From: a virus
Taxonomy: Duplodnaviria; Heunggongvirae; Uroviricota; Caudoviricetes
Virus record (IMG/VR): IMGVR_UViG_2734482570_000015
Reading direction: 5' to 3' (one strand)
DNA length: 44,534 bases
Positions within the stretch are counted from its first letter, which is position 1, and each line of letters opens with the position of its first letter. Under the pieces are notes generated by a model. That model had not been told where the DNA came from. It searched no databases and saw nothing but the letters and a program-made list of their open reading frames with translations. Position numbers and translations under genes: made by a program. Of the stretch, positions 1 to 24,912 are shown piece after piece.

Positions 1-3968
<3,968 letters not shown>

Positions 3969-4676: not shown

Positions 4677-5317
4677 TTGTCGGTGTACCTCTCTCGTTTG
4701 CTCAGTTGTTCAGGAATATGGTGCAGCAGCTCGCCGTCACCACAGTAAATGGCGGCATGATTCGGCACCGATGAACCAAAGCAGCACAGCAGCACATCGC
4801 CCGGCTGCGCCGTTGACAACGGCACCTGATACAGCCCTGTAGCCTCCAGATTATCCAGATAGAGATTCTGACCATTACGCCACCAGTCGTCCTCACGATG
4901 AAAATCTGGCATCTCAATTCCCGCCAGATGGTAAGCGTCCCGGAACAGCGTGTAACAGTCCGTCACCCCGTGCTCAAAGCGCCGCCCGGTGAGATGCGGC
5001 ACACAGCGGAACTTGTGAATCGCCCCGCGGCAGACCAGCCACCACGACAAATCACTCTGCACCTGCAGCCGCCGGTCGGCCTCACTCAGCCAGGGCAGAC
5101 CACCGGGGTGGCTGTGGACCAGCGCCACAATCTCACCCTGCATCTCTGCCTGCAGCCAGTCCTCCGGAGCCATCCGGAAATACTCCTCCGGCTCACCGGA
5201 AATATTCACGCAGGGAAAATATCTTTCCCCCTCCGGTGTTCTCACCACGAAGCCGCACGACTCCGCTGGCGCACATCGCCGGGCGTGCGCCAGAATCGCT
5301 GATTCTGTCTGTGTCAT
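4574..5317 (-). CDS. K: Tail assembly protein K (predicted JAB/MPN plus NlpC/P60 family); overlaps the start of I as in lambda
   Basis: 247-aa ORF beginning MTQTESAILAHARRCAPAESCGFVV with an HSHP motif; positioned between L and I. Exact 3' end uncertain (lambda K is shorter). Confidence 0.75.
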   Translation of the reverse strand: MTQTESAILAHARRCAPAESCGFVVRTPEGERYFPCVNISGEPEEYFRMAPEDWLQAEMQGEIVALVHSHPGGLPWLSEADRRLQVQSDLSWWLVCRGAIHKFRCVPHLTGRRFEHGVTDCYTLFRDAYHLAGIEMPDFHREDDWWRNGQNLYLDNLEATGLYQVPLSTAQPGDVLLCCFGSSVPNHAAIYCGDGELLHHIPEQLSKRERYTDKWQRRTHSLWRHRAWHASAFTGICSDLAAASTFV

Positions 5318-5322
5318 GGGAT

Positions 5323-6021
5323 TTACTGCGAAAGTTTGTTAATGGAAAGGAAGCCGCCAAAGTTGCCGACGTTATTGCGGAACTTACAACCGCTCAGGCA
5401 TTTGCTGCATTTATCCTTCGTGATATCGGACGTTGGCTGGTCATATTCATCCGCGACAGCCGGACCGTGATAACCGCACTCATCACCGCGATAGGTCCAG
5501 GTGCAGGTATTAGCAAGCATGATGCGCCCCGGAAAAACAGCGCCGTCCGTTTCCGTCGGCGTGGACAGTACAAAGGAGGCACTGACCGCGCTCAGTTCGC
5601 TGCACTGCTCAATACGCCAGCGGCTGATCACCTCCTGCTCCGGATCGGCGTCACTGTTTCCGTTGACGAAGTTCACCGCATCCAGAAAACGGGCGTAAAC
5701 CTTACGCCTGACCACCGTTCCGCCGACCAGACTCTGCAGGTCTTCCGCCATCCCGGTGACCATGCCGTGCAGATTAGAGACTTTCAGCGTTGGCCTTGCA
5801 CTGGCACCTTTGCCGTTCATCTCAAATCCACTCCCCTGAATGGGATAGGCCTGATACTGCCGACTCTGCCAGGTGACAGACTCTCCTTTCTCGTTCTGCT
5901 CATTGCAGAAAAAGTAGCGATCCCCGCCTACCTCGGTCAGGTCGATTTCCCAGAGCACCACGCTGGCCGACTGCTCCGCACGAATGCATTCATTCAGCGT
6001 TTCCTGTTGTATGTCCTGCAT
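5323..6021 (-). CDS. L: Minor tail protein L
   Basis: 232 aa, same length as lambda gpL; C-terminal Cys cluster (CSKCLSGCKF); synteny M-L-K-I-J. Confidence 0.85.
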   Translation of the reverse strand: MQDIQQETLNECIRAEQSASVVLWEIDLTEVGGDRYFFCNEQNEKGESVTWQSRQYQAYPIQGSGFEMNGKGASARPTLKVSNLHGMVTGMAEDLQSLVGGTVVRRKVYARFLDAVNFVNGNSDADPEQEVISRWRIEQCSELSAVSASFVLSTPTETDGAVFPGRIMLANTCTWTYRGDECGYHGPAVADEYDQPTSDITKDKCSKCLSGCKFRNNVGNFGGFLSINKLSQ

Positions 6022-6359
6022 CAGATCACCACTTCGTCAAACTGACACGAAAAATCGGTATAGGTGATATGTTCTGTCGCTGACCACGTTCGACACACCA
6101 CTCTGATTTTTCTGTTAATACCCGGCGGGCGCCAAAAAAAAGATTTATAGCCTTCATGCCGGGCTAAAAATTTTTCAAATGAATCACGTTCATTCGCCTC
6201 AACTTTGAAATCACAGGTGAAAACGCGCAGAGAATGATTAAGTCCATTTGGACTTCGTTGCTCATAACCATCACCAAATCTTACAGTTTTTATCGATGGT
6301 TTATTTTCTGTTTTCATTCCATCCTCTGGTAACCAGTGAAATTCTTCCGTATTAGCCAC
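6021..6359 (-). CDS. M: Minor tail protein M
   Basis: 112 aa with VRFGDGYEQRSP and FFWRPP motifs resembling lambda gpM; sits between tape measure and L. Confidence 0.8.
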   Translation of the reverse strand: MANTEEFHWLPEDGMKTENKPSIKTVRFGDGYEQRSPNGLNHSLRVFTCDFKVEANERDSFEKFLARHEGYKSFFWRPPGINRKIRVVCRTWSATEHITYTDFSCQFDEVVI

Positions 6360-9300
6360 TTAACATTCCCCCATCACGTCGCATATTTAACAGATTGCCC
6401 TGCACCCGCTGATCAACCATCCCCATAAGTGCTTTTATTGCCTGAGGGCCAATCTCTCCATTCTGGCCGTCATTTTGAATAGTGATTTGGTATACAGGGG
6501 CATAGGTAATATCTCCGCCTCCATTACCACTTTTACTATTAATAGCTCTGACACCAAGAGAACCATCGGAAGTTCGTGTTAATGGCATAATGGCTTCCGG
6601 TCCAGCCTCACCAAAAACACCAGCCCCTTTTGCAAAAGCAAAAAATTGCGGGGAATCATAAATACCGTTCGAATACGTGCTCAATGACGGAGACTCATAA
6701 ACACCGCCCTTTGCATTCGGAATAAATTTACTAATAGCACTCCCGATAGTTCCTAAAATCCCCCCAGAAGAACTGTTACTAATGCTGTCGAAAATCCCAG
6801 TAATTGAAGCCTTTAATGCTATTCGACTAAGATCCGAAATCACGGAAGTAGCGAAAGAACGAAAATTTGCCTTGCCTGTCGTGACAAAATCACCCAGCGC
6901 ATCGGTCATCCCATCAAACATCTGAGTCGTGGTTGATTTTATCTGCTCACTGATATCCTTAGTGTCATCCAGCCAGTTATTGAATCCCTGGGAGGCACCA
7001 CTAACCCAGTCTCCTGCCTGAATATCGAGCTGCTCGTTTTTCTGTCTGACAATTTCTTTTTCCCGTTCCAGAGCATCATTCAGAGCCTGCATTTTCTCTT
7101 GAAAAACATGATCTGACATTCCACGGGATTTATCTGCATAGTCACGTTCAAGTTGCAGACGCTGATTGTTATATCCATGTTCAATCCGCAGTAATTCCTG
7201 CTGGCGTTGCTGATTTTTATCGCCAACCCCATAACCAGCAATCTGAATATCATACCCCTGCTGACGATTATCAATCGAAGCCTGCAATGAATCACGCCAT
7301 GCTGTTATTTCGGCGGATTCCTTGATTAGCCTGTTATTTTTTTCAATCGCAACATTTTTCTCCATCAACGTGGTTATTTCTTCCCGGTGTAAGAGAAGCG
7401 ATTTCTGATCCTGGGTTAATTTCGATGATGGTCGTGACTCTAGGTCGGCAATCCGCTGACGCCACTTAACCAGTTCCTGTTCAGAGGAACTTAATTTAAC
7501 GGTCAACTCAGCTTGTGAACTTAGTAACGCATTCTGTTGATTCAGATGATCAATCATTCGTTGGGCTGCATCATCAGAATAACCTTTCGCCTTTGGTTGC
7601 TTTGGATCTTTATAACGCTCATTTATTTGAGCGATAAGATTATTATATTCTTCCTTTGAATACTGATTCTTTAGCTTTTCCAGTTTTGCAAGTTCACTAG
7701 CTCTCTGCTGCTCCCGGGTCTGATATTGTTTTGAAAAGGCATCTGCTCTCTGTCTGAGTTCAATTCCTTCCTGTTGTCGCTTGTTGTAATCGTTTATTGA
7801 TGAATTTAGTACGTCCTGAGCAATTTTTTCTGCTTGAAGTACGCCCAATTGCTGCTTTAATCGTGCCAGCCTTTTATTTTGAGCTCCGCCATCTCCAATG
7901 CCACCTAACCCGAAAACTCCGGGTCGGGTATTTTTTTCTATTTCATCAATTTGACGGAGAACATCTGAGATTTTTTGATCAAGGGAGGCCTCACGGCCAA
8001 TATCCAGCATGGAATCCCATGCCCATTTTGCGGAGTCTGCGACAGCTTTCCATGCAGTCTCAAGATAACCAAGATTTTCTTTAATCTGGTTGGTGCGCTG
8101 GATCATTGAGGATGAGTATTCTTCTGTCGCAATGCGGGCGGCCTCCTACTGGTTCCCTTCATCCTGTAGCGCCTTAATCTGGTTATAAGTCGCAAGTGTC
8201 AGAAAATGGTACTGATCATTAAGTTTTGATATGGCACTGACAGGATCCTTTGCAATTTCATTGAAGTCATTAACCAGTTGTTCGGTTGATATTCCTGTTA
8301 CTTCGCTCGTTTTTACTATCGCTGTCGTCACTTGCTCCAGCGAACTGCTCGCTACCTTTCCCGAACGCACAAGCTGATTTAATACTGCCGCCGCAGCACC
8401 AGTTGTCGAATCAGCCGCATTCCCGGCACGTTGAGCTATATCGCCCAATTGCCCGCTGGTTGTCCCCAACTGATTTCCGGTAAGAATAAGAGATTTATTA
8501 AATTCGTCCTGCTCCTGAGAGCCTTTATAGTAAGCCAGTCCTAAGACCCCAACGGCTGCTGCGGCCAGGGTAAAAGGATTAATTAATCCCAGCACATAAG
8601 AACCTACACCTTTGATCGCCGGGCCAATCCCACCGAACATATCTTTTAGCTGGCCGCCCTGCTGCATTAACACCATAAATGGCGACTGACCAGTGGACAA
8701 CCCAACAACAATATCCGTCATTTGTACAGGCAACATGCGCATAGCAAAAGCCGTTTGTTTTGCCGACATTCCGGTTTTGCTTAATTGTGATTGAGTAACC
8801 TCAAGCTCACTCCGCATAGCACGAAGTTTTCCAGAAAGCTCCTCATACATTTCAGGAGAAAGCATCCCCTTAGCTTTTGCTTCATTGAGCTGTTTCTGTT
8901 GTTCTACCAGACGATTAAAAGCAGTTCCGACAGGATCAAGTTGAGCAATCAGACGTTGCAAAGCAACAACCTGTTCATCATGCGCTTTTGCTGCTTCTCG
9001 CTCTGCCTGAGCCTCTCCGGTAAGCTCTCGCCGTGTTTCCTGTATTTTTCGGCTATAATTCTCAAACTGAGAACCATTTATTTTCCCGGATGCAAACGCA
9101 GCATTAAGTTCATCATGCTGTTGTTCAAGATTTCTTAGCGCCGCAGCCAGAGGGTCGATCTTGTCCAGCATTCTTTGAAAGGCCTGAGCCTGCGCTTCCT
9201 GCTGGGCGGCAGCAAGTTTTCCGGCCTTCTCGGCTTCTCTCTGCGCTTGCGCAACCCCGCTCAATTCCTCTGTGGTTTCATTAAGTTTACGGACAAGAAA

Positions 9301-9585
9301 TTCATATTCTTCTTTATCAATAAGCCCTTTATCGAAAAATTTCTTTAATTCAGAATAGCGTCGACCGACAGTATCAATTGCGGCACCAACTGGATCAATA
9401 GCTGCTTTTAATTTTGCGAGCGCGTTCTTCTCATCTTCTGTTGCCTTAGTCACTTTCCCTGCGCTATTTGCAGCAGTTTCCCCAGCCTGCGTCATTTTGA
9501 CTAATGAGGAGGTCAGATTGTCAGCATTATTTTTCGCTCCAGTGCTATCAATAATTATTGCGAGACGCGAGGTTTGCTCTGCCAT
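6352..9585 (-). CDS. Tail tape measure protein, read as one frame but interrupted by a single in-frame TAG at 8146-8148
   Basis: ORF 8146-9585 (479 aa, coiled-coil rich with hydrophobic segment [30 protein letters not shown]) and ORF 6352-8106 (584 aa) are in the same frame. The 39 nt between them translate without a stop ([14 protein letters not shown]). Together they would make about 1077 aa. Confidence 0.8.
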
Positions 9586-9606
9586 TTATTAAAACTCCTG
9601 ACAACA

Positions 9607-9630
9607 AAAAACCCACCGCGAAGTGGGTTT
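9607..9630 (-). terminator. Rho-independent terminator between the G-T chaperone gene and the tape measure gene
   Basis: Minus strand reads AAACCCAC-ttcgcg-GTGGGTTT followed by a T-run (8-bp stem, 6-nt loop). Confidence 0.55.
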
Positions 9631-9750
9631 CAGGCGACATAATAGTAGATATAGCGATTACGAGGCCACGCAATGCTTTTCTCCAGGAGCATCATCGATT
9701 TAATTAAAGACACCATCACATCTCTGTAACAGAGTGTACGTAATTAACAA

Positions 9751-10520
9751 CTACACACACTGCTCCTGAAAATACTGGTCATCCAGTGCAAAGATCACTG
9801 CTTCAAATTCATCGCGCTCAATCAATACCGGATGAGTGGCTAAATATTCATTTATCTCTGTCAGAGATAAAGGCAAAGGCACCCCAGCCATTCCAGCATA
9901 ACGTCGGGCACGGGATATTACCGAATAGGCGTACAACAACTCCTTAAGCACCGGGTCTATTTCTGGTTCCGGTATCGGTGGCAACCTGAGTTTTTCTCGC
10001 TTCCATCTTGCCTTTTCCCCCCTTTCTCCCCCGAACTCCGATAACCACCGCTGGGCAGCTATGGCTTTTTTATCGTATCCTGCTTCTGCTGCTCTTTACC
10101 CTGGGCGATGCTGGCTGCTTCTGCAAGGATCTGCCAGTACAACTCTGGATTCTGCTTAAGCAGCGCGATCCCTCGTTCTGCCGTATATTCCAGTGCAACC
10201 TCAACACCATTAACCAGTTCACCAACCCCTTTCCAGTCTTTCAGCAGATAACGAGCGGCATTATCAATGAGTAAATCATCAACAGAATCCACCTCGGAAA
10301 CCTTTGAAATATCAAACTCCTTCGTTCCGACGTGCAAACTGGCATCCATTTTCTCAATGTGGCGACGGATTAATGCATTACGGGAGCGATACTGATCGTT
10401 ATCGCTGCTTGCCACCAACAGTTTTAACCCGTCTACAGGTTTTAAGTCCTTCATTGGCGTAAACCAGCGTTCTCCACCAATGATAATTTTCTGATTAAGA
10501 ATAAACATCCATAACCTCAT
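9751..10520 (-). CDS. Tail assembly chaperone G-T fusion made by -1 programmed frameshift
   Basis: The -1 frame is open from the slippery heptamer through ORF 9751-9984 (which the ORF track begins at a TTG): ...KKAIAAQRWLSEFGGERGEKARWKREKLRLPPIPEPE... Confidence 0.65.
10059..10520 (-). CDS. Tail assembly chaperone (gpG-like)
   Basis: 153-aa ORF immediately upstream of the tape measure gene; ends ...KEQQKQDTIKKP with a slippery site two codons before the stop. Confidence 0.75.
   Translation of the reverse strand: MRLWMFILNQKIIIGGERWFTPMKDLKPVDGLKLLVASSDNDQYRSRNALIRRHIEKMDASLHVGTKEFDISKVSEVDSVDDLLIDNAARYLLKDWKGVGELVNGVEVALEYTAERGIALLKQNPELYWQILAEAASIAQGKEQQKQDTIKKP
10065..10071 (-). promoter_or_regulatory. 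-1 ribosomal frameshift slippery heptamer A AAA AAG
   Basis: Minus strand reads gat acg ata aaa aag cca tag; zero-frame codons AAA AAG preceded by A, the canonical X XXY YYZ form, two codons before the G stop. Confidence 0.65.
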
Positions 10521-10568
10521 TCAATGCGTCCCCCTGTAGGGCAGTACCACAGGAGGAATAACGGAAAA

Positions 10569-11531
10569 TCAACTAATCGCCTCAGCACTGGCTTTTGCGA
10601 TCACGGCAGCCGGGGAATTTTTTTTTCTGGTTATCGTAGGTGCTTCATCTGCTGCGGTAATGCTCAATTGAACCTGGATAATGTCGCTATTACCCCCATC
10701 AGGCCATTCACCTGACACCTGAACCTTCGGGAAACTGAAAGTGTATGCCCCCTCTCCATTCGAAAGCGTGAAGCTGAACGGAACTGTTTCTCCAGTCAGT
10801 GTTTTACTCCAGATTTCCCACGCGGCTTTAGACCATGAAAGCGTCACCGTACCGGACGGTGTAAAAGTAGTCGGAATATTTGCTCCTGCATAAGGCGAGC
10901 CAGTCCCGATACAACGCTGTGTCTGGAGTTTGTTATCGAACTGAATATCAAAACTGTCGATACAAAAACCGTTACCTCCGGCAACACCATTCAGGCTTAC
11001 TGCTGAAACCTCCTTAAACGAATAACGTAGCTTTCCTGCACTATCCACAGGTTCGCCTTTGATAAAATTCGTATCATCGGCCTTTGATTCCCAGTCCAGT
11101 CCGGCAAAGGTTACGGTCGCTGTAATATCGCCGTCGTTAGGGATCTGCATTTTCCATGAGCCAACCTGCGCTCCTCTGACGACAGAGGCAATTCCGACAT
11201 CGGACGCATAGGTCGCCAGAGAAAATGTTATTCGCTCATTCCCCATTGTCAGAGAATCGCCTGACCATTCCGCGCCGAAACAGGATGCAAGAAAATCATC
11301 ATGTTGACCCCAGCGAAATTTGGTACCAACATCACCGCCGACATCCACAGTGCCAGGCGTCGCCCCCTGAGCCATCCGGGAGCCACCAATCTCATTATTT
11401 TCGCCTTTATTCTGGGTGGGTTTTACTCCCCAGCTTGTGCGTTTTAATAAACTCCAGTCACCACTTGCTGGCGTAGTGCCTGCAACCGTCTCCCGGATAA
11501 ATGCCGAGATAACCTTTGCACCTGAACTCAC
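10569..11531 (-). CDS. Major tail (tube) protein with C-terminal Ig-like extension
   Basis: 320 aa; position between the tail terminator and the G/G-T chaperone; Ser/Thr/Gly-rich beta-type sequence typical of tail tube proteins. Confidence 0.65.
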   Translation of the reverse strand: MSSGAKVISAFIRETVAGTTPASGDWSLLKRTSWGVKPTQNKGENNEIGGSRMAQGATPGTVDVGGDVGTKFRWGQHDDFLASCFGAEWSGDSLTMGNERITFSLATYASDVGIASVVRGAQVGSWKMQIPNDGDITATVTFAGLDWESKADDTNFIKGEPVDSAGKLRYSFKEVSAVSLNGVAGGNGFCIDSFDIQFDNKLQTQRCIGTGSPYAGANIPTTFTPSGTVTLSWSKAAWEIWSKTLTGETVPFSFTLSNGEGAYTFSFPKVQVSGEWPDGGNSDIIQVQLSITAADEAPTITRKKNSPAAVIAKASAEAIS

Positions 11532-11557
11532 AGGAGCCTCCTATGTCATTAATTGCG

Positions 11558-11950
11558 CTAGAGCGCGCGATATGGAATTTGAAGATTAAGCTGGAACCAG
11601 CCATTCTTTTCGCCAACGGCTATTGAGGAAACAGCCTGGTAACTGAGACGATCGTCATCCTGAAACTCAAACAGTTCCCGCAATTTATCGGCTGTCTCAG
11701 TAATGAGTTTTGAACCAGAACCTGCGGGGACAAATAACTGAATAATGATTATCCCCGTGCGATAAACAACCGGCCCCGCGCCAATTTCATTAACTCCAGC
11801 CTGCCCGGGAATATTACTTAACCGCGCCCAGATTAACTTACCGGAAGGATCGAACGTTGGCCCGTTCGGATACAATACGTCTTTTCCATCAATAATCGTC
11901 TGTGCCGTCATTCTGGAAATAACCGTATTTCTGATTTCAGTAAACTTCAT
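11558..11950 (-). CDS. Tail terminator / tail completion protein (gpU-like)
   Basis: 130-aa ORF directly upstream of the major tail gene; assignment by synteny. Confidence 0.5.
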   Translation of the reverse strand: MKFTEIRNTVISRMTAQTIIDGKDVLYPNGPTFDPSGKLIWARLSNIPGQAGVNEIGAGPVVYRTGIIIIQLFVPAGSGSKLITETADKLRELFEFQDDDRLSYQAVSSIAVGEKNGWFQLNLQIPYRAL

Positions 11951-12327
11951 TTGTAAGCCTGTAAAACACCATGAAAAGCGTTGGCATACACGCCAGTTGG
12001 CGCTTGTTGTGAATGACCGTTTTCAAGAGCCTCTGCATAAGGAAGGTTATTCTGGATATAAATAACCCCGTAATTTGCAGCTTTCGAAATAACCCCGATC
12101 CCACGCTGAACAGCAATCGTACCGTTCGGATCCACGTTATCAGATATACCAAAATCGGGATGCTGTAACGACACCAGGTTGTTATTTCTGAAACGTCCGG
12201 TATCAACCGGAGCAGCAATATCAATAGCAGTAAGAATCTGCATAGCGATGTAGCGAATCTTCAGCCCTACATCTTCCTCAATCATCCCGGCAAATATTGA
12301 CGGTTCTATATCCCATGCCTTTGCCAT
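11947..12327 (-). CDS. Neck / tail component protein (HK97 gp10-like or Z-like)
   Basis: 126-aa ORF; start overlaps the stop of the upstream gene (translational coupling); assignment by synteny. Confidence 0.45.
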   Translation of the reverse strand: MAKAWDIEPSIFAGMIEEDVGLKIRYIAMQILTAIDIAAPVDTGRFRNNNLVSLQHPDFGISDNVDPNGTIAVQRGIGVISKAANYGVIYIQNNLPYAEALENGHSQQAPTGVYANAFHGVLQAYK

Positions 12328-12711
12328 TTACGCTCTCCTTAACTGGATAGAGTAAACTGATGCGGAAGGATCTACACTTGCTGTAATTACCTCGTATCGT
12401 TGTAACTGCCTTGATACAGGATCATAAATCTCAATAATATGGTCGACAGCTGGTTTATCCGTAACCTCGCATACCAGAGCGGTTAATTTAAGGTCACCAT
12501 GCAAAATATTAATCCCATCAATTCTGCCCAGCTTATAACGTGTCAACACGCCTCGCCCGGTATAGATTGCGGTGGATTCGCCGCCAGTTTCCGTCACAGG
12601 ATCCCAGTGCCGGTGCGTAACGTAAGAACCAGAAAAATCACTCACGGCGTCCGCTAAATCCTCATCAAAAGCAGCGGCAACCTCTGACTGAATCTCTTCA
12701 CGAAGCCCCAT
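12328..12711 (-). CDS. Head-tail joining (head closure) protein
   Basis: 127 aa; synteny within the neck module. Confidence 0.45.
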   Translation of the reverse strand: MGLREEIQSEVAAAFDEDLADAVSDFSGSYVTHRHWDPVTETGGESTAIYTGRGVLTRYKLGRIDGINILHGDLKLTALVCEVTDKPAVDHIIEIYDPVSRQLQRYEVITASVDPSASVYSIQLRRA

Positions 12712-13106
12712 TATCCCCCCCTCACAACCCTGACTTGTGAGCGACTAAGTCCGTACGGTTTCAGCAGTGCTATCGCAAGCTGTAAATCGGGTTCAAGCAA
12801 TGCAGTGCTGTTTGCTGGCAACTCAGAAAATGATTTCGATACACTGACCCCGTCAGCCGACACGGCTTTACTGATAACAACGCCAGAATCATTTTTCTGC
12901 TGAAACAACTTACCGAATGAGGCAATTCTGGCTGCATATGCTCCCGCAAGTTTTACCTCTTCCGGAATACGGGATGGGTTAATTTTCAGGTTGAAGCCAT
13001 TAAGCCAGGCATTAGCCATTAAAACAGCTTTATTTTTAGCGTTCTCACTCGTCCAGGCGTTCCCAAACGCATTATCAACGTCATCACAGGTCACGTAAGT
13101 GATCAT
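12711..13106 (-). CDS. Head-tail connector / adaptor protein
   Basis: 131 aa; synteny; 1-nt overlap with the downstream gene. Confidence 0.45.
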   Translation of the reverse strand: MITYVTCDDVDNAFGNAWTSENAKNKAVLMANAWLNGFNLKINPSRIPEEVKLAGAYAARIASFGKLFQQKNDSGVVISKAVSADGVSVSKSFSELPANSTALLEPDLQLAIALLKPYGLSRSQVRVVRGG

Positions 13107-13109
13107 GTG

Positions 13110-13286
13110 TTACTCCTGAGTTTTCCAGCCCATAGCCTTCCAGTTGTCAACTTCATCAGGATGAACATTAGCGATAGTTGGTGCGCCGGGAAACATCTGA
13201 TAATCGGTCACCATAACCACTAACTCAATTTGCGTTTTTTGTGCGGCTTCACGCTGTGCTCTTTGCTCTTTAGTTAATCCGGCCAT
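13110..13286 (-). CDS. Small hypothetical protein (58 aa), below the ORF-track size cutoff
   Basis: Hand translation gives MAGLTKEQRAQREAAQKTQIELVVMVTDYQMFPGAPTIANVHPDEVDNWKAMGWKTQE. ATG is preceded by GGGGGG; the stop lies 3 nt before the next gene's ATG. Confidence 0.45.
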   Translation of the reverse strand: MAGLTKEQRAQREAAQKTQIELVVMVTDYQMFPGAPTIANVHPDEVDNWKAMGWKTQE

Positions 13287-13295
13287 ATGCCCCCC

Positions 13296-13319
13296 ATTAA
13301 AAATGGGGCCGAAGCCCCG
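13296..13319 (-). terminator. Rho-independent terminator just downstream of the major capsid gene
   Basis: Minus strand reads GGGGC-TTCG-GCCCC followed by ATTTTTAAT (GC stem with TTCG tetraloop). Confidence 0.7.
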
Positions 13320-13328
13320 TTTGAATGT

Positions 13329-14468
13329 TTAACCAAGAATCAGACAACCATGTGCCGGCTTCACTGATGAAACACCCCATGCCAGTCCAACTTCATAGCG
13401 CACCTGGCGATACTGACGATACAGTGCAATCTGGAACGTAATCCCTGAAATCGGGTCCGTAACATTCATTACATCATCAGCATTATCGCCACCTTCCGGC
13501 ATTGCCGGAGTACGGGATGCCAGCAGAAACGCGTTGCGATCAAACGCCATATTTGCAGTAAAGGCCCCAACAACTGTGATGGCAGTATCATCGGCCAGAT
13601 CCTGACGCAGTCCGGGCGCTGCAAGAGTAATCAGATTGCTGGTCGCTGCTGCCACAACATACTGATTCGGATCACCAGCGAACGTAACAATCTGACCTGC
13701 AGAAATACTCCCCGAACCAGTATCAATGGAAATAAGAACATCGCCTTCTTTTTTCTCTCCATTCACGAGATAACCAGTTGCAGCAACCTTTGGCGCTCGT
13801 TTCACACCTGCCGAACTGTGAATATTGAATCCCTCCAGACGCCCCAACACGCCCTCACGCAGTAGCTGTTCAGTGCCGGATTCATTCACTTTAAACAATA
13901 CAGACTGTTTTCCGCGCAAATTAGCAATGGCAGTGGAGCCAAGCACCATCTGCAGATCGGTTGTCGGTGCGCCGTTATCCTCCAGAACCTGACGAGCCAG
14001 AGCAGCATCAGAAAGATCATCTTTAACACCAAACGGCGTTGTCCCTGCGGTTCCCACGGCGCGGGAAGCACCGAAATACAACGCACCAAGATCAGCCTCA
14101 ACCTCGTTTGCAAGGGCGCGAAAAGCCTGCTTGAACTGATCAGCCAGAATGGTGTTGTAAGTCCCTGAAGGGCCAAGAGCCAGTTGTTCTTCACCATTCC
14201 ATTTAACCGGTGCCATTTTGGATTTAGTAATTTTTACATCAACAGTGCCAATATTTTGATCACCGGTATTCGGAGCTGACGGCCCCGGTACGATATCTTC
14301 GGTTTTCGCCTCAGGCGCAACTGGCGCGGTTACCGTCTGATCTTTTGCTGCGGCGTCAGCTTTTGCGTTTTTTGCTACCGCAGGGATAAAACCTACCTGC
14401 TCACGGGATACAACATCCAGGGCGGTATAAATAGTCGGGATCAACCCGGTCAGGGTATTTCCAGCCAT
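13329..14468 (-). CDS. Major capsid protein
   Basis: 379 aa from the internal ATG (MAGNTLTGLIPTIYTALDVV), which has an upstream AGGAATAT Shine-Dalgarno-like sequence. Sits downstream of the scaffold gene and is followed by a strong terminator. Confidence 0.7.
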   Translation of the reverse strand: MAGNTLTGLIPTIYTALDVVSREQVGFIPAVAKNAKADAAAKDQTVTAPVAPEAKTEDIVPGPSAPNTGDQNIGTVDVKITKSKMAPVKWNGEEQLALGPSGTYNTILADQFKQAFRALANEVEADLGALYFGASRAVGTAGTTPFGVKDDLSDAALARQVLEDNGAPTTDLQMVLGSTAIANLRGKQSVLFKVNESGTEQLLREGVLGRLEGFNIHSSAGVKRAPKVAATGYLVNGEKKEGDVLISIDTGSGSISAGQIVTFAGDPNQYVVAAATSNLITLAAPGLRQDLADDTAITVVGAFTANMAFDRNAFLLASRTPAMPEGGDNADDVMNVTDPISGITFQIALYRQYRQVRYEVGLAWGVSSVKPAHGCLILG

Positions 14469-14566
14469 AATTAAATATTCCTTAAAAATTTGCGTAATTG
14501 TGAATAGATGGAGTAATGAGCTATCCAGCCCTGACACCAGCTCCCATCCGGAAGCTGACAAATGTG

Positions 14567-15331
14567 TTAATCAACGATTGTGATACCGTCTTTCAATGCG
14601 TTTTGCTTACCTGCAACATCCAGTGCATCAAAAGCAGAGCGTTTCATCGTTTTCTGACCAATATCATGCTGTGTCGGACGGGAGCCGCCGCCATTGTTGC
14701 CACTGGCTTTCAGGATGTAGTCTTTCTGAGGGTAATTTTCGACAAGGAACTCCAGCGCCTCATCAAACTGCGCCAGTTCGCCAGGCTTCGCGCGGGAATA
14801 AATTTTGTTGCCGGAAGCGTCATAAGCAACGATCCTCCCTTCTTCCACTTTGAATGCCTGCCCGAAGCGGGCTTGTAATAAATCTGCCGGGATCGCAATT
14901 TTATCGGCAATATATTTTGAACCCGCAAAACTACCGCCAATCATAGAATCGTAAAGCTGCTTCTCCAGCATCTGAGAGCGTTGCTTTTCTTCATCTAATT
15001 GCTGCTGAAAATTTTTCGTAATTTCTGCCTTAACCTGGTCAACCTGTCCCGCATCGAGCAGCTTTTTCTGGTCGATTTTTGACAGCATTTCCAGTGCCTC
15101 GATCGCCTTCTTCGGGTCTTCGATAGCGGCAAACTTAGCCAGTTTTTCCTCTGCAGCTTCTTTAGCCAGGCGATGATTTTTTGCCTCGCCATTAAGCTCT
15201 GTAATTTTTTTTGTCGCCAGCGGTGCATCGAAGCCAATTTCTTTACCATCGTCGTGCACATAAACTGGCAGGCCAGCAGTATCAATTTCTGCGTATTGTT
15301 TTCCGTTAATCTCGACCGTTTTCAGTTTCAT
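14567..15331 (-). CDS. Head scaffolding protein
   Basis: Charged, predicted coiled-coil ORF (AKEAAEEKLAKFAAIEDPKKAIEALEMLSKIDQKKL); likely start MKLKTVEINGKQ; lies between the morphogenesis and capsid genes. Confidence 0.55.
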   Translation of the reverse strand: MKLKTVEINGKQYAEIDTAGLPVYVHDDGKEIGFDAPLATKKITELNGEAKNHRLAKEAAEEKLAKFAAIEDPKKAIEALEMLSKIDQKKLLDAGQVDQVKAEITKNFQQQLDEEKQRSQMLEKQLYDSMIGGSFAGSKYIADKIAIPADLLQARFGQAFKVEEGRIVAYDASGNKIYSRAKPGELAQFDEALEFLVENYPQKDYILKASGNNGGGSRPTQHDIGQKTMKRSAFDALDVAGKQNALKDGITIVD

Positions 15332-15435
15332 ATTAGTACCTGGTTTAAGTCTTCCGACAGTTACGCTGCTCACCATCCGGATCGCAGCAATAAAAAAGGC
15401 CACCCGAAGGTAGCCTGTTGTAATAAATGATTTAT

Positions 15436-16551
15436 TTAAATCCCTGCTTTTCTGAATACCTGTGCATCACGCTCACGGAGCTGCTTCAGCGTCAGCCATT
15501 CGCCTTTATCGGTGTAAAATTCATCTGGCGACATACCACCATCCCGAATCAGCTTTGCTCGGCTTTCCCCCACAATCTGTTTTTGTCTGGTGTAAGGCTG
15601 ACGCAAAAACCATTCCCTGTAGGTTGTATCTCCGGCCACCACGCCATCCATGCTGGCCCGCTCAGCCGGGGAAATATCGCGAACATCAATACCCAGTTCC
15701 TTCGCTGATTTCAGAATGAACGTTTCCGTTGAGCGGCAGCAGAAATGAATTTTTCCCGGCCCCTGCAAATAAGGCACGCTGTGACCTACAGGTTTATTAT
15801 TCAGCGTATATTTGAGGCGATCCCTGATTCGACATTGTGGCGTAGTACGATTATCAAGCGTTGATAACCATTGCTTACCCTTAATCAAATCATTATTCGC
15901 GCTGGCAAAACTCTCACGGGCAGTAGCAGCAAGATGTCCAACCGCTGTTTTTGCAATGCTGGCCGCATTAGCCCGGCTCATCTGCAATGCACCATCCTGA
16001 AATCCCTTACTGACATGTCCCCGAATTTTTCTTGCGATCTGCTCATTGGTATCCCCCAGCAAAAAACCCTGACGCACTGTATTTGTTATGCGTCTGAGCC
16101 GATCCGCCTCAAGATCTGAGGCCCACTCACTGAGCAGTCGTCCCTGGAATGGTCGCGCCATTGCAGCGGCATAAAGTGCATCAGGAGAGATACCAACCAG
16201 AGGGTGAACATCAGCAACAAAATCAGGTAGCATAGAATCAAACAGACTTAACTGATAACCAGCCTCATAAATTGCCAGCTCGTTCAGCTCTCCGGAGAGA
16301 CTGGTAAACATGCTGTTAATAGCAGTGCGGTTAACCTCTCTGACGCTCGCCAGAAGTGACTCCAGGCGCTTAACGGTAAAACTACCTGGATCGAGGCTGT
16401 CCAGTGCTATCAGCAGGCGAGCAGTAAGTTCCGCATCGCTGTCATTCAGTATTTTCACCATTCTGGCAGCCACGCCAGTGCTATAGCGGGATATCCAGAC
16501 TGCATGAGCAATTGATTCATCACGCAGCCGTTCATTCACGGTTTGCATCAT
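15436..16551 (-). CDS. Head morphogenesis protein (Mu gpF / SPP1 gp7-like minor head protein)
   Basis: 371 aa; directly downstream of and overlapping the portal gene; family assignment from memory. Confidence 0.6.
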   Translation of the reverse strand: MMQTVNERLRDESIAHAVWISRYSTGVAARMVKILNDSDAELTARLLIALDSLDPGSFTVKRLESLLASVREVNRTAINSMFTSLSGELNELAIYEAGYQLSLFDSMLPDFVADVHPLVGISPDALYAAAMARPFQGRLLSEWASDLEADRLRRITNTVRQGFLLGDTNEQIARKIRGHVSKGFQDGALQMSRANAASIAKTAVGHLAATARESFASANNDLIKGKQWLSTLDNRTTPQCRIRDRLKYTLNNKPVGHSVPYLQGPGKIHFCCRSTETFILKSAKELGIDVRDISPAERASMDGVVAGDTTYREWFLRQPYTRQKQIVGESRAKLIRDGGMSPDEFYTDKGEWLTLKQLRERDAQVFRKAGI

Positions 16552-17938
16552 TGATTTCCATCAGCATTACACTCTGATTTTTTAATTCATCGATCACTTC
16601 CTCTGGACGGGAATCCTGATCGATAAATTTCAACGCCTGCAACACCCGAACCGCATCAATCTGACGTATATCACCGCCCTGACGCAATGACTGAACAGCC
16701 AGCGCGGAGGATGAGTCAAACACCTGGGCAGATACATCCAGTTCAGTGCGCACATCCACATTGCCACCGCAACTCTCTCCGATCCATTCCGCCATTATCT
16801 GGAGAATATTATCGAGGGCATCTTCGAGGGAGTTCGCCATTGTATAAAGCGGCGAGTTTTCCTGCATTCGCTCTTCATTAGTCTGATCAACAGATTTGGT
16901 GGATGTATTTTCAGCACGCAGAAGTTTAGCGCCGGCATGACGCATCTGATTTTCCAGCTTCTCAAGTGATGTTTCGCCAGATTCTATCGCTGCGCCACTA
17001 TGTTCAACATATTCGAGGCCATTTTTTGTTCTGTCCTCAAAAATCGTAGCGGTGGATGCACCAACCGTCAGTTCTTCATTCCTGTCCAGCCCGTAGGCCA
17101 CCAGCAATGGAACGCGGGCAACATGAAGAATATTGTCCTGCTCGCTCTGGCTTTGCCAGTGCTTGATATTCAGCAAGCCAAGATTAAGCAATGGCGGTGT
17201 ACCACGCATAAATCCTGTTTTCTTCGTGTACAGTGTTACCAGAGGAATATCATCACGGCTGGTATTCCATGACTCATGAAGCGTCCAGACAGATTCGCCA
17301 TTAGTGCCTTCGCTACGTCGATAAATTTCAACTCGACGGGGCATAATATGGCGGATCTGCTCCACCTTCTTCTGCCCGAAATCATCACCATCAATAATGA
17401 TGACCTCTTTTATACGCAAATCAGTGAGAACAACTTTCCCTTTTTCAACTTTCGATTTCCATCCAATAACCTGGCGTGGATTCAGCATCGTAACGTACGG
17501 ACGACCACCGGTCGCGTTTTCATCGGCTTTTGTCCGAATCTCTTTCATATCCGTTCGTGGATAGTCCACCAGCGCATGTGCCACACCATACTGAAATGCG
17601 AGGCTGAAAAATTGCTGCGCCCACACATCCAGTCGGCTCCCCTCCATGTCGATATTTTCTGCATATTCCCTGATTTTTGCCGGCGTTTCCTCACTCAATA
17701 CTGTCGGCTCTGCAAATATGCGCCCAATATTTTGCTTGATGCTTTCTTCATACACAGGAAGTAGCGTAGCCACAGACAGGCGTTTTTTATAAGCGTCTTC
17801 ATCTTCGTTAGGCCATTTTGGGAGATAATTTTCCCCCTGCCTGCGCATTTCAAGCGTACCGCCCATCAGTGCGTCGTTAATATCCCACGCCTCCAGCATA
17901 TCGTTATAGTCGAGGTTGGGTGTTGATATATCAGCCAT
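16532..17938 (-). CDS. Portal protein
   Basis: 468 aa, immediately downstream of the terminase large subunit gene. Confidence 0.7.
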   Translation of the reverse strand: MADISTPNLDYNDMLEAWDINDALMGGTLEMRRQGENYLPKWPNEDEDAYKKRLSVATLLPVYEESIKQNIGRIFAEPTVLSEETPAKIREYAENIDMEGSRLDVWAQQFFSLAFQYGVAHALVDYPRTDMKEIRTKADENATGGRPYVTMLNPRQVIGWKSKVEKGKVVLTDLRIKEVIIIDGDDFGQKKVEQIRHIMPRRVEIYRRSEGTNGESVWTLHESWNTSRDDIPLVTLYTKKTGFMRGTPPLLNLGLLNIKHWQSQSEQDNILHVARVPLLVAYGLDRNEELTVGASTATIFEDRTKNGLEYVEHSGAAIESGETSLEKLENQMRHAGAKLLRAENTSTKSVDQTNEERMQENSPLYTMANSLEDALDNILQIMAEWIGESCGGNVDVRTELDVSAQVFDSSSALAVQSLRQGGDIRQIDAVRVLQALKFIDQDSRPEEVIDELKNQSVMLMEINDANRE

Positions 17939-17940
17939 AA

Positions 17941-19251
17941 TTAAATCCGAAGTGATGTGACTCTTCCGGTCGGTTTGACAATAGGGAATTGCTTAACGAT
18001 GAAATAACCTCCGGCATCATTCGGGTGATCATTGCCAGATTTTTTATCAGGCTCCCCCTTCTCATCCCAGACCTGTTGCTCCAGAGATTCGGCATATAAC
18101 GGGCAACGCTTCACATTAACTTTATAGCGACGCTCACCATTGGCATTGCAGAACATTGCATTCATTGAGTTAACGCGATCTTTTACTGGCGGGTTCGAGC
18201 TGTTCACCACAACGTTAAAACCAGCCTGCTTAAGCTGGGCTATATCCGTCGTACTTGCGTTACTTGATTTTCTGGAATCCCCGGAAGCATCTGGATAAAT
18301 ATAAATTTCCCTCACTTTCCGGTAATCATTCCCATCATACAGCCAGAAGCGTTCTTTAATGATGCGGATCATATCCGGCGTATCGTAGGCATTGATGATT
18401 TCAGTTACCGCACATGGAAGCCCCAAACGCAGCACATGGACGATTCCCGCCATCTTTCCAACGTTAAAATCCATCCCAATATAAATCGGCTCCCCTGGCT
18501 GCTCCACTTCTTCGCAATTATTCAGTTTCCGGTCAAACTGATGGTAAACAGTACCACTTGTCAGGTTAGTAAACTGTCCTCGAAGATAGGCTTTAATCAG
18601 CTCTGGAGGGTATGATTCAAGAAGCGAAGGAATGTAATCTGCTGGCAGGTTCTTTTCATTATCGAAAGTAGATGCCTGCACCAGACCATACAGTGAGGCC
18701 AGCTCTGTTTTTTCACGCACGGCTTTAACAAACTGCTCGTAGACAAATTTGAATCCTTCCGGCGTGGTTGTAACGTCAATACCGTTGCGAAGTCCATCAA
18801 TCTTATAACGCATACGTGCAATTATCTTGCGCCACGCCGTTCTGGCTTTTTCCTTCGGCAAAATGTCCAGTTCATCCACCAACGCATTACCAATTTTGAA
18901 ACCGACGATCGTTTGTGGCTTCTCCATCGATCTGCAGATAGTGGTTCCCCGATACTGGCGTCCGTAATAAAAGTGAACCTCTTTATTTCCCTCATTAATT
19001 TTTACGTTCAATCCCCAGTCAGCAGCAACTTCTTCCACTGTAGGGTAAAAAATATCGCGAATTTGGGGATACGTTGGCGCAAAATATCCCTGATTTATAC
19101 CTGGATGCTCCCAAATCCCCTTGCATATGCCGCCACACCCAACCCATGTTTTGCCCGAGCCAAAACCAGCAATATAGGCTTTAAATTTATGGGGCATTGA
19201 AAGAAATCGCGCCTGAGGCACATTAAGCGTCGGAGAGATCATCTTCATCAC
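17941..19251 (-). CDS. Terminase large subunit
   Basis: 436 aa with Walker A-like GFGSGKT near the N-terminus and acidic motifs (LVDELD, IGMDFN). Confidence 0.8.
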   Translation of the reverse strand: MMKMISPTLNVPQARFLSMPHKFKAYIAGFGSGKTWVGCGGICKGIWEHPGINQGYFAPTYPQIRDIFYPTVEEVAADWGLNVKINEGNKEVHFYYGRQYRGTTICRSMEKPQTIVGFKIGNALVDELDILPKEKARTAWRKIIARMRYKIDGLRNGIDVTTTPEGFKFVYEQFVKAVREKTELASLYGLVQASTFDNEKNLPADYIPSLLESYPPELIKAYLRGQFTNLTSGTVYHQFDRKLNNCEEVEQPGEPIYIGMDFNVGKMAGIVHVLRLGLPCAVTEIINAYDTPDMIRIIKERFWLYDGNDYRKVREIYIYPDASGDSRKSSNASTTDIAQLKQAGFNVVVNSSNPPVKDRVNSMNAMFCNANGERRYKVNVKRCPLYAESLEQQVWDEKGEPDKKSGNDHPNDAGGYFIVKQFPIVKPTGRVTSLRI

Positions 19252-22358: not shown

Positions 22359-23816
22359 TTAGGAGCGCCAAAAAAAACCTGAAAACAATATAATAACAGG
22401 ATAAATTTCAAGGCGACCAAGAATCATAGCTATGCACATTAAATATTTTGCAATGTCATTAAGCACTCCGAATGACGATGCAGTAGCCCCAAAACCTAAT
22501 CCCATATTATTAATACATGCAGCCACTGTTGCAAATGATGTAAGAAAATCATATCCCATACCATTTAACACCAGTATAAAAAACACCGTGAAGAGAGTAT
22601 AAAGAAAAAAGAAACTCCATACAGACCTCATTACACGATCTGTAACTATCTTCCCTCCTACATTTACACTCAACAACGCTCTGGGATGAGAAAGCTGATT
22701 TATCTCGTGTTTGCTTTGTTTGAAAAGTATAAGAAATCGAAGTGACTTAATTCCACCACAGGTTGAACCTATACATCCCCCAAAGAAACTTGACAACAGC
22801 AAAAACACTATCGTGTGCGTGGGCCAGTTTGCATAATCCTGCGTAGCTAAACCATTATCAGTGAGCATGGAGCTGGCAAGAAAAAACGAATGAATAAAAC
22901 TTCCATGCAAGTCATACATACCTATATGCCAGACCTGGAAAGAGGTAACAATGATCACCCCTAAGGCTATTAACAGAAAGAAACGAAGTTCAATATCTCT
23001 GATTAAAGGTTTTATCGTTTTTCTGCTAATAACAATATACCAAAGAGTGAAGTTGAAAGCCGATAGCAGGGAAAAAGAACCAGCCACCAGCTCAACCAAA
23101 TAGTTATTAAAATATCCGATACTCTCGCTATGAGTTGAGAAACCACCAAGCGAAACTGTGGAAATCCCGTGACAAATAGCATCAAACAAAGGCATTCCTG
23201 CAAGTCTATAACAGACAATACAAGCAATACCTAATAAAGAATAAGTTATCCACAGTGTCCGTGACGTATCGGCCAGGCGGGGAGTGAGTTTGTCATCCTT
23301 AAATGGCCCCGGCATTTCTGACTGATAAAGCTTTGCACCACCAATACCCAATAATGGCAATACTGCAACCGCCAGAACAATAACTCCTAAACCACCTATA
23401 AAATTTAACTGTGACCGATAGTACAAATATGCCCGAGGTAATGAACTAACATCATCAATTACAGTTGCTCCTGTTGTTGTTATTCCAGAAACCCCTTCAA
23501 ACAGAGCATCAATGAACGTTAAATTAAGTTCTGAGTCAATCCATAAAGGGAATGCACTAATAACAGAAAACAAAATCCAAAACATTACAATTATAATAAA
23601 CCCATCACGGGTACGTAATTGAATGCCAGATTTCTTAGTTGTATACCACGCTCCGCCACCAATGCAAAAAAATATAACGAAAGTTATAAAGAAAACGAAC
23701 AGGCTTTTTTCTTTATAAAACAATGCTACAACCATTGGTGGCAACATTGAAAGACTATAGAGCCAAACCAGGAACCCACACATATGAGTAACAACTCTTA
23801 CATGAGATGTATTCAT
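22359..23816 (-). CDS. trkG: TrkG potassium uptake protein (TrkH/TrkG family); low-GC moron inside the late region
   Basis: 485 aa from MNTSHVRVVTHMCGFLVWLY; multi-pass membrane protein. trkG is a known Rac prophage gene in K-12. Gene and upstream region are visibly AT-rich. Confidence 0.85.
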   Translation of the reverse strand: MNTSHVRVVTHMCGFLVWLYSLSMLPPMVVALFYKEKSLFVFFITFVIFFCIGGGAWYTTKKSGIQLRTRDGFIIIVMFWILFSVISAFPLWIDSELNLTFIDALFEGVSGITTTGATVIDDVSSLPRAYLYYRSQLNFIGGLGVIVLAVAVLPLLGIGGAKLYQSEMPGPFKDDKLTPRLADTSRTLWITYSLLGIACIVCYRLAGMPLFDAICHGISTVSLGGFSTHSESIGYFNNYLVELVAGSFSLLSAFNFTLWYIVISRKTIKPLIRDIELRFFLLIALGVIIVTSFQVWHIGMYDLHGSFIHSFFLASSMLTDNGLATQDYANWPTHTIVFLLLSSFFGGCIGSTCGGIKSLRFLILFKQSKHEINQLSHPRALLSVNVGGKIVTDRVMRSVWSFFFLYTLFTVFFILVLNGMGYDFLTSFATVAACINNMGLGFGATASSFGVLNDIAKYLMCIAMILGRLEIYPVIILFSGFFWRS

Positions 23817-23953: not shown

Positions 23954-24418
23954 TTACTTTAAACACTGCTCGGTTATGTATTGCTGAGCACCTTCAAGTT
24001 GGGCCTGCATCATTACCAGTCGTTCCCGGAGGGTGAAATAATCCCGTTCAGCGGTGTCTGCCAGTCGGGGGGAGGCTGCATTATCCACGCCGGAGGCGGT
24101 GGTGGCTTCACGCACTGACTGACAGACTGCTTTGATGTGCAACCGACGACGACCAGCGGCAACATCATCACGCAGAGCATCATTTTCAGCTTTCGCATCA
24201 GCTAACTCCTTCGTGTATTTTGCATCGAGCGCAGCAACATCACGCTGACGCATCTGCATGTCAGTAATTGCCGCGTTCGCCAGCTTCAGTTCTCTTGCGT
24301 TTTTGTCGCGCTGGGCTTTGTAGGTAATGGCGTTATCACGGTAATGATTAACAGCCCACGACAGGCAGACGATGATGCAAATAACCAGAGCGGAGATAAT
24401 CGCGGTTACCCTGCTCAT
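23954..24418 (-). CDS. rzpR: Rz i-spanin
   Basis: [50 protein letters not shown] matches lambda Rz as recalled. Confidence 0.85.
24013..24198 (-). CDS. rzoR: Rz1 o-spanin lipoprotein, embedded in Rz in the +1 frame
   Basis: 61 aa beginning [23 protein letters not shown] (lipobox VVGC) with a proline-rich segment [15 protein letters not shown]; fully nested inside Rz. Confidence 0.85.
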
Positions 24419-24912
24419 TGTTGACCCCACAAACAGACTTCACGCTCAATCTCACGACGGGTCATCAGCCCTTTCCATTGCTTACCGCCAGCATATGTCC
24501 AGCGACGTAGCTGATCACATGCGCCTTTGATATCGCCCTGGTTTATTTTGCGAAGAAGCGTCGATGTTCTGAAATTACCAGCGCCCACGTTGTAAACGAA
24601 CGAGTAAAGAGCGCCGCGCGTTGTTTCCGGTATATCGACTTTGATGTACGGGTTAATTTGTCTGGCGACAGTGGCAAGGTCTTTATTCAAGAGTGTTTTG
24701 CATTCTGCTTTGGTATACGTTTTACCGAGCATGATGTCTTTTCCTGTATGCCCGTGACATACAGTCCATACACCAACAATATCTTTGTATGGTATGTAGC
24801 TGACACCTTCCAGACCATCGTTACCACTTGGGCCAGTGATTAACACTGATGCTATAGCAATTGCTCCGCCACCAATAGCAGCAGCAACGACTTTTCGTAA
24901 TGATGGAGGCAT
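24415..24912 (-). CDS. SAR endolysin (lysozyme, phage 21 R-like)
   Basis: 165 aa with an N-terminal Gly/Ala-rich weakly hydrophobic segment ([20 protein letters not shown]) followed by a lysozyme-like domain; lies between holin and Rz. Confidence 0.8.

Follow-up and report, generated by a model that had tools for sequence, protein, structure and literature searches.

A recent CAG-to-TAG change that probably disabled the tail tape measure gene of a Rac-type prophage

Two ORFs in the window (the whole 44,534-nucleotide stretch of viral DNA analyzed here) resemble parts of a tail tape measure gene but are separated by one stop codon, which raises the question of whether the gene is broken, misread, or normally expressed across or around the stop. 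The first-pass annotation had placed the ORFs in the same frame, with a single TAG at 8146-8148 followed by 13 open codons and a joined product of about 1077 aa. Translation confirms all of these points and adds the strand, a detail absent from that annotation: both ORFs, 8146-9585 (479 aa) and 6352-8106 (584 aa), lie on the minus strand. The minus-strand translation of 6352-9585 comprises 1078 codons and is interrupted once before its terminal stop, at codon 480, which reads TAG on the minus strand (CTA on the plus strand). The joined tape measure has a length of 479 + 1 + 13 + 584 = 1077 aa. The features of the locus are as follows.

6352..9585, minus strand: ancestral tail tape measure gene, lambda gpH homologue, 1077 codons plus stop (from translation; an intact 3234-nt CDS in relatives)
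8146..9585, minus strand: N-terminal fragment ORF, 479 aa, with a TMP_2 domain at residues 267-471 (ORF list, Pfam, PHROG)
8146..8148, minus strand: amber codon TAG (CTA on plus), Gln480 CAG to TAG; relatives have G at base 8148, the window A
8107..8145, minus strand: 13 open sense codons from the amber to the first in-frame ATG; ordinary tape measure coding sequence, the same in relatives
6352..8106, minus strand: C-terminal remnant ORF, 584 aa, with TMP_4 and Tape_meas_lam_C domains (ORF list, Pfam, PHROG)

The upstream ORF matches TMP_2 (PF06791) with 274 bits against a curated cut-off of 30.2, and the downstream ORF matches both Tape_meas_lam_C (PF09718; 92.5 bits, cut-off 23) and TMP_4 (PF24622; 85.9 bits, cut-off 27). 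Matches to phrog_24 are consecutive, covering positions 127-459 for the upstream ORF (E = 7e-153) and 474-1053 for the downstream ORF (E = 1e-166). The Pfam domains and the consecutive phrog_24 stretches together indicate that the two ORFs are halves of a single gene. The protein of an intact relative aligns with tape measure chain 8iyk_H (E = 4e-70; residues 268-1077 on 55-850 of 853 aa, which we take to be the length of lambda gpH) and with 9l9p_B (E = 9e-57). Profile matches, homology to a solved structure, and gene position all place the gene in the lambda-type tape measure family. A single continuous polypeptide, present in all relatives with CAG, is lacking here, and because the ORF is interrupted at codon 480, the split copy is a pseudogene of this family.

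The ancestral codon can be read directly from relatives. E. coli 64.1, NCTC10444, Salmonella phage SPF_0923, and vB_EcoS-473R12 each carry a single 3234-nt CDS with CAG at codon 480, and all 33 of the 33 full-length ungapped copies in IMG/VR are uninterrupted ORFs of 1077 codons. The comparison with tape measure genes of related prophages that the first-pass annotation proposed therefore returned the same answer throughout, CAG and a single ORF in every relative examined. A 41-mer spanning the site in its CAG form was found in 688 of 5,426 complete E. coli genomes, and its TAG form in none of the 5,426. The variable base lies near the center of the 41-mer, so that megablast finds only the matching allele; since an allele match is needed, the absence of the TAG 41-mer is informative. 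A 33-mer with CAG was found in 60 IMG/VR contigs, while the TAG 33-mer was found in no IMG/VR viral contig and in no metagenome contig (the TAG version alone was queried in the latter collection).

Two IMG/VR contigs, L051 and L026, carry a gene that differs from that of the window by the amber base alone, and L051 equals window positions 5426-19143 (13.7 kb) at every base but 8148. Because the background in L051 is otherwise identical, the change can be polarized as a plus-strand G to A at 8148, i.e., coding CAG to TAG. The window gene has a second difference from NCTC10444:

8726, minus strand: Ala287Val (GCA to GTA), also in L051 and L026, where codon 480 is CAG

Ala287Val was not found in the 5,426 complete E. 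coli genomes and was considered as a second private mutation, an idea rejected by its presence together with CAG480 in these two contigs. As Ala287Val is inherited, the notion of a cluster of new mutations in this gene also falls.

The best explanation, with a probability of about 0.88, is a recent, isolate-specific CAG-to-TAG nonsense mutation, most likely leaving a tail-defective prophage. This was the first of the readings offered in the first-pass annotation, and it is supported by CAG in relatives and by a nearest relative one base away over 13.7 kb. A single recent plus-strand G-to-A transition at 8148 (C to T in the coding strand) would have converted Gln480 from CAG to amber, and in a non-suppressing host translation would end after 479 residues. 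The resulting fragment would keep the N-terminal coiled region and TMP_2 and lose TMP_4 and the lambda-type C-terminal domains. The C-terminal portion of lambda gpH is anchored in the complex at the tail tip, tail length is dictated by the full-length protein, and H amber mutants form no tails in hosts that lack a suppressor. Reasoning from gpH, the prophage would be unable to build tails. Excision, replication, lysis, and head filling should still be possible, because the other genes are intact, and tail-less heads would be released. The mutation would then represent an early step of neutral prophage decay that happened to strike one of the longest genes. It is a case of ordinary prophage decay and introduces nothing new in kind.

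The rest of the prophage is well preserved. The window is a full-length Rac-type prophage with 99.9% identity over 24.5 kb to annotated E. coli Rac regions, and it contains the Rac gene set (intR, xisR, recET, ralR, kilR, sieB, ydaS-V, trkG, and ydaY) together with a complete head and tail module. Although the source label is Shigella sonnei, many E. coli strains harbor Rac-type prophages that are 99.9% identical to this one. In the annotation of NCTC10444, ttcA adjoins intR; the window ends at the last base of intR, and judging from this relative the prophage would sit beside ttcA. When 50 CDS of NCTC10444 were mapped to the window, an internal stop was found in the tape measure gene only; the other 49 of the 50 were intact, mostly without any amino acid change. 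Of about 29 differences from NCTC10444 beyond position 4700, 14 fall within about 300 bases at the lysis/lysozyme (rrrD) junction (24296-24601), a cluster that looks like a small recombination patch and not point mutation.

The order of the tail genes is lambda-like: tube, YdaY-type chaperone, and tape measure, followed by homologues of M, L, K, I, and J. The immediate neighbors of the tape measure gene are as follows.

10059..10520, minus strand: tail assembly chaperone of the YdaY type (gpG analogue), intact, shortly before the tape measure gene (PF27119, Phage_YdaY)
9751..10071, minus strand: predicted -1 frame extension of the chaperone (gpT analogue); slippery A AAA AAG at 10071-10065, open to a stop at 9751-9753
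6021..6359, minus strand: gpM-type minor tail protein, intact, with an 8-base overlap with the end of the tape measure gene (PF05939, E = 1e-31)

The A AAA AAG motif lies two codons before the chaperone stop, and the -1 frame remains open for about 105 further codons (ORFs 10059-10520 and 9751-9984). The extension is predicted to be a programmed frameshift product of the gpG/gpGT type; its match to Phage_TAC_18 is weak and below the curated cut-off. At this locus RefSeq annotates ydaY only.

The tail-tip gene J, also on the minus strand, is broken by N runs at 890-1111 and 2131-2295, and the amber consequently cannot be called the sole defect of the tail module. The stretches bordering the second gap (1782-2130 and 2296-2644) share 94% similarity, so that the scaffold may combine J-like copies from two different prophages. 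ORFs that run across the J gaps (e.g., 881-2326 and 2097-3968) are artifacts of the Ns.

The state of J bears on the sequencing-error option of the first-pass annotation. The window corresponds base for base to scaffold CWZI01000013.1 of assembly GCA_001250015.1 (record label Shigella sonnei), a draft from short reads that contains N gaps and, in the neighboring J gene, what looks like a mis-join; a TAG allele found nowhere else in the searched collections is also the pattern that an error would produce. However, the exact 479-aa protein is recorded for GCA_001250015.1 and for the Logan assembly of run ERR572876, and only for these. The Logan contig reads ...CCAGTAGGAGGCC... across the site, with the same TAG. 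Either both assemblies derive from the same run and two different assemblers agree, or they derive from different runs and two isolates share the TAG allele. An assembler artifact is unlikely, since the independent Logan re-assembly gives the same TAG. An error in the sequencing or consensus base, with a true codon CAG and an intact gene, we consider improbable: the NCBI and Logan assemblies, made with different software, have the same base; the site falls in non-repeated sequence without gaps, with the closest N run 5.8 kb away; and a relative matches the surrounding 13.7 kb at every other base, which argues for high local assembly quality.

A real amber codon may also be phenotypically suppressed, through a host suppressor (a supE-type tRNA-Gln), read-through by a near-cognate tRNA, or a restart of translation at the ATG 13 codons further on. 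CAG to TAG is exactly the change that a Gln-inserting suppressor repairs, so that the wild-type protein would be regained in a supE-type host; the stop is followed after 39 nt by an in-frame ATG; and in lambda only a few copies of the tape measure protein are needed per tail. Against suppression, the base after the stop is G, and TAGG is not known as a leaky context; no tRNA gene was detected by ARAGORN in the 44.5-kb window, which rejects a prophage-encoded suppressor tRNA; the ATG at 8106 is preceded by no Shine-Dalgarno sequence; and the TAG allele is conserved in no relative, giving no hint of selection for such a mechanism. Suppression in any of these forms is accordingly rated improbable as well. 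A tolerated amber in which a Gln-inserting suppressor or near-cognate tRNA-Gln read-through restores Gln480 is a slightly slimmer prospect; if true, the prophage would be a natural conditional (leaky) mutant and not a dead one. Searches of the literature on natural amber suppressors, on the Rac prophage with tape measure, and on ERR572876 returned nothing useful.

Re-initiation fares no better. The sequence upstream of the ATG of the remnant (8104-8106), GAATACTCATCCTCAATG, contains no Shine-Dalgarno motif, and independent translation of the 584-aa remnant is therefore unlikely; for the same reason, the remnant could be made only by inefficient re-initiation. An AGGAGG overlaps the amber codon itself, 35 nt from the remnant ATG and 8 nt from an in-frame ATT, and use of this ATT as a weak start is speculative. 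We know of no tape measure protein that is replaced by two separate fragments.

Disrupted copies of near-identical tape measure genes occur elsewhere, likewise broken by CAG to TAG or by IS elements, but each at a different position and none with an amber at codon 480. GCA_965251445.1 (locus L008, 2522-5755) has an independent CAG to TAG at codon 458 and keeps CAG at 480, and three more loci have an upstream product of 457 aa. In vB_EcoS-885R8 (locus L002, ON470602.1, 3001-6234) the CAG-to-TAG change is at codon 833, and two tape measure CDS are listed in four further vB_EcoS phage records. Insertions of IS1, IS3, or IS5 interrupt the tape measure gene of several genomes. Damage also reaches other tail genes: in E. 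coli 64.1 (locus L001), the tape measure gene is intact while the tail tube and gpM-type genes are annotated as frameshifted (1056-2017 and 6227-6564), and comparison of these frameshifts with the amber of the window indicates that different isolates carry different single lesions in the same tail module.

These recurrent lesions, with at least three independent CAG-to-TAG changes and several IS insertions in near-identical copies, might reflect selected inactivation, or domestication, in which the host lineage gained from disabled virion production. They also fit mutational target size with no special mechanism: the gene is about 3.2 kb long and offers 59 CAG codons and 452 possible one-step nonsense changes. 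The chance that all three nonsense changes would be CAG to TAG is about 0.125 (59 of 118 transition nonsense sites), and at this probability no selection can be deduced from the pattern. Moreover, loss of the tape measure protein would leave induction and lysis in place, with no obvious protection of the cell, and the codon 480 allele is a singleton with no spreading clade. Domestication is thus given very little credence. Programmed read-through, or a tape measure normally encoded by two genes in this phage group, has only the shared reading frame in its favor and can be dismissed, as a sense codon within a single ORF is found in every relative examined, the 688 genomes with the CAG 41-mer stand against none with TAG, and split copies elsewhere have other positions and other lesions. 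The conserved or programmed form of the read-through stop suggested by the first-pass annotation is refuted by the absence of the TAG allele from the genomes, IMG/VR, and metagenome contigs searched. Two separate genes as the normal state, which that annotation had named as a finding that would overturn its reading, are refuted by the single 1077-aa ORF of all CAG relatives.

With the nonsense mutation as the preferred reading, the two ORFs are better annotated as one tape measure pseudogene, and the prophage is best scored as a probable non-producer of infectious particles, although it looks complete to prophage-finding software. The locus illustrates cleanly how prophage decay begins, in that a relative which otherwise matches across 13.7 kb directly displays the ancestral allele; beyond annotation its importance is small.

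Among characterized systems, lambda gpH shares with the intact protein the TMP_2 and Tape_meas_lam_C domains, the alignment with 8iyk_H, and a gene order that includes a chaperone with a -1 frameshift. The lambda protein has 853 aa and the protein encoded here 1077 aa, of which about 210 residues form an additional coiled region at the N terminus. Laboratory lambda Ham mutants have formally the same lesion, whereas the amber of the window would have arisen spontaneously in a natural prophage. The head module is unlike that of lambda, as the major capsid protein is annotated as P22 family in NCTC10444 and the minor head protein matches Phage_Mu_F.

The Rac prophage of E. coli K-12 is defective, integrated next to ttcA, and has lost most structural genes. 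The genes for integrase, xisR, recET, ralR, kilR, sieB, ydaSTUV, trkG, and ydaY are common to both prophages. Unlike K-12 Rac, the window prophage retains its head and tail genes in full, and apart from J with its gaps, no coding lesion other than the amber was detected. By this analogy, the window prophage would represent an early stage of the decay that produced K-12 Rac. As in K-12 Rac, trkG (22359-23816), a host-type potassium transporter gene, is intact and lies as cargo (a moron) between the lysis cassette and the terminase genes.
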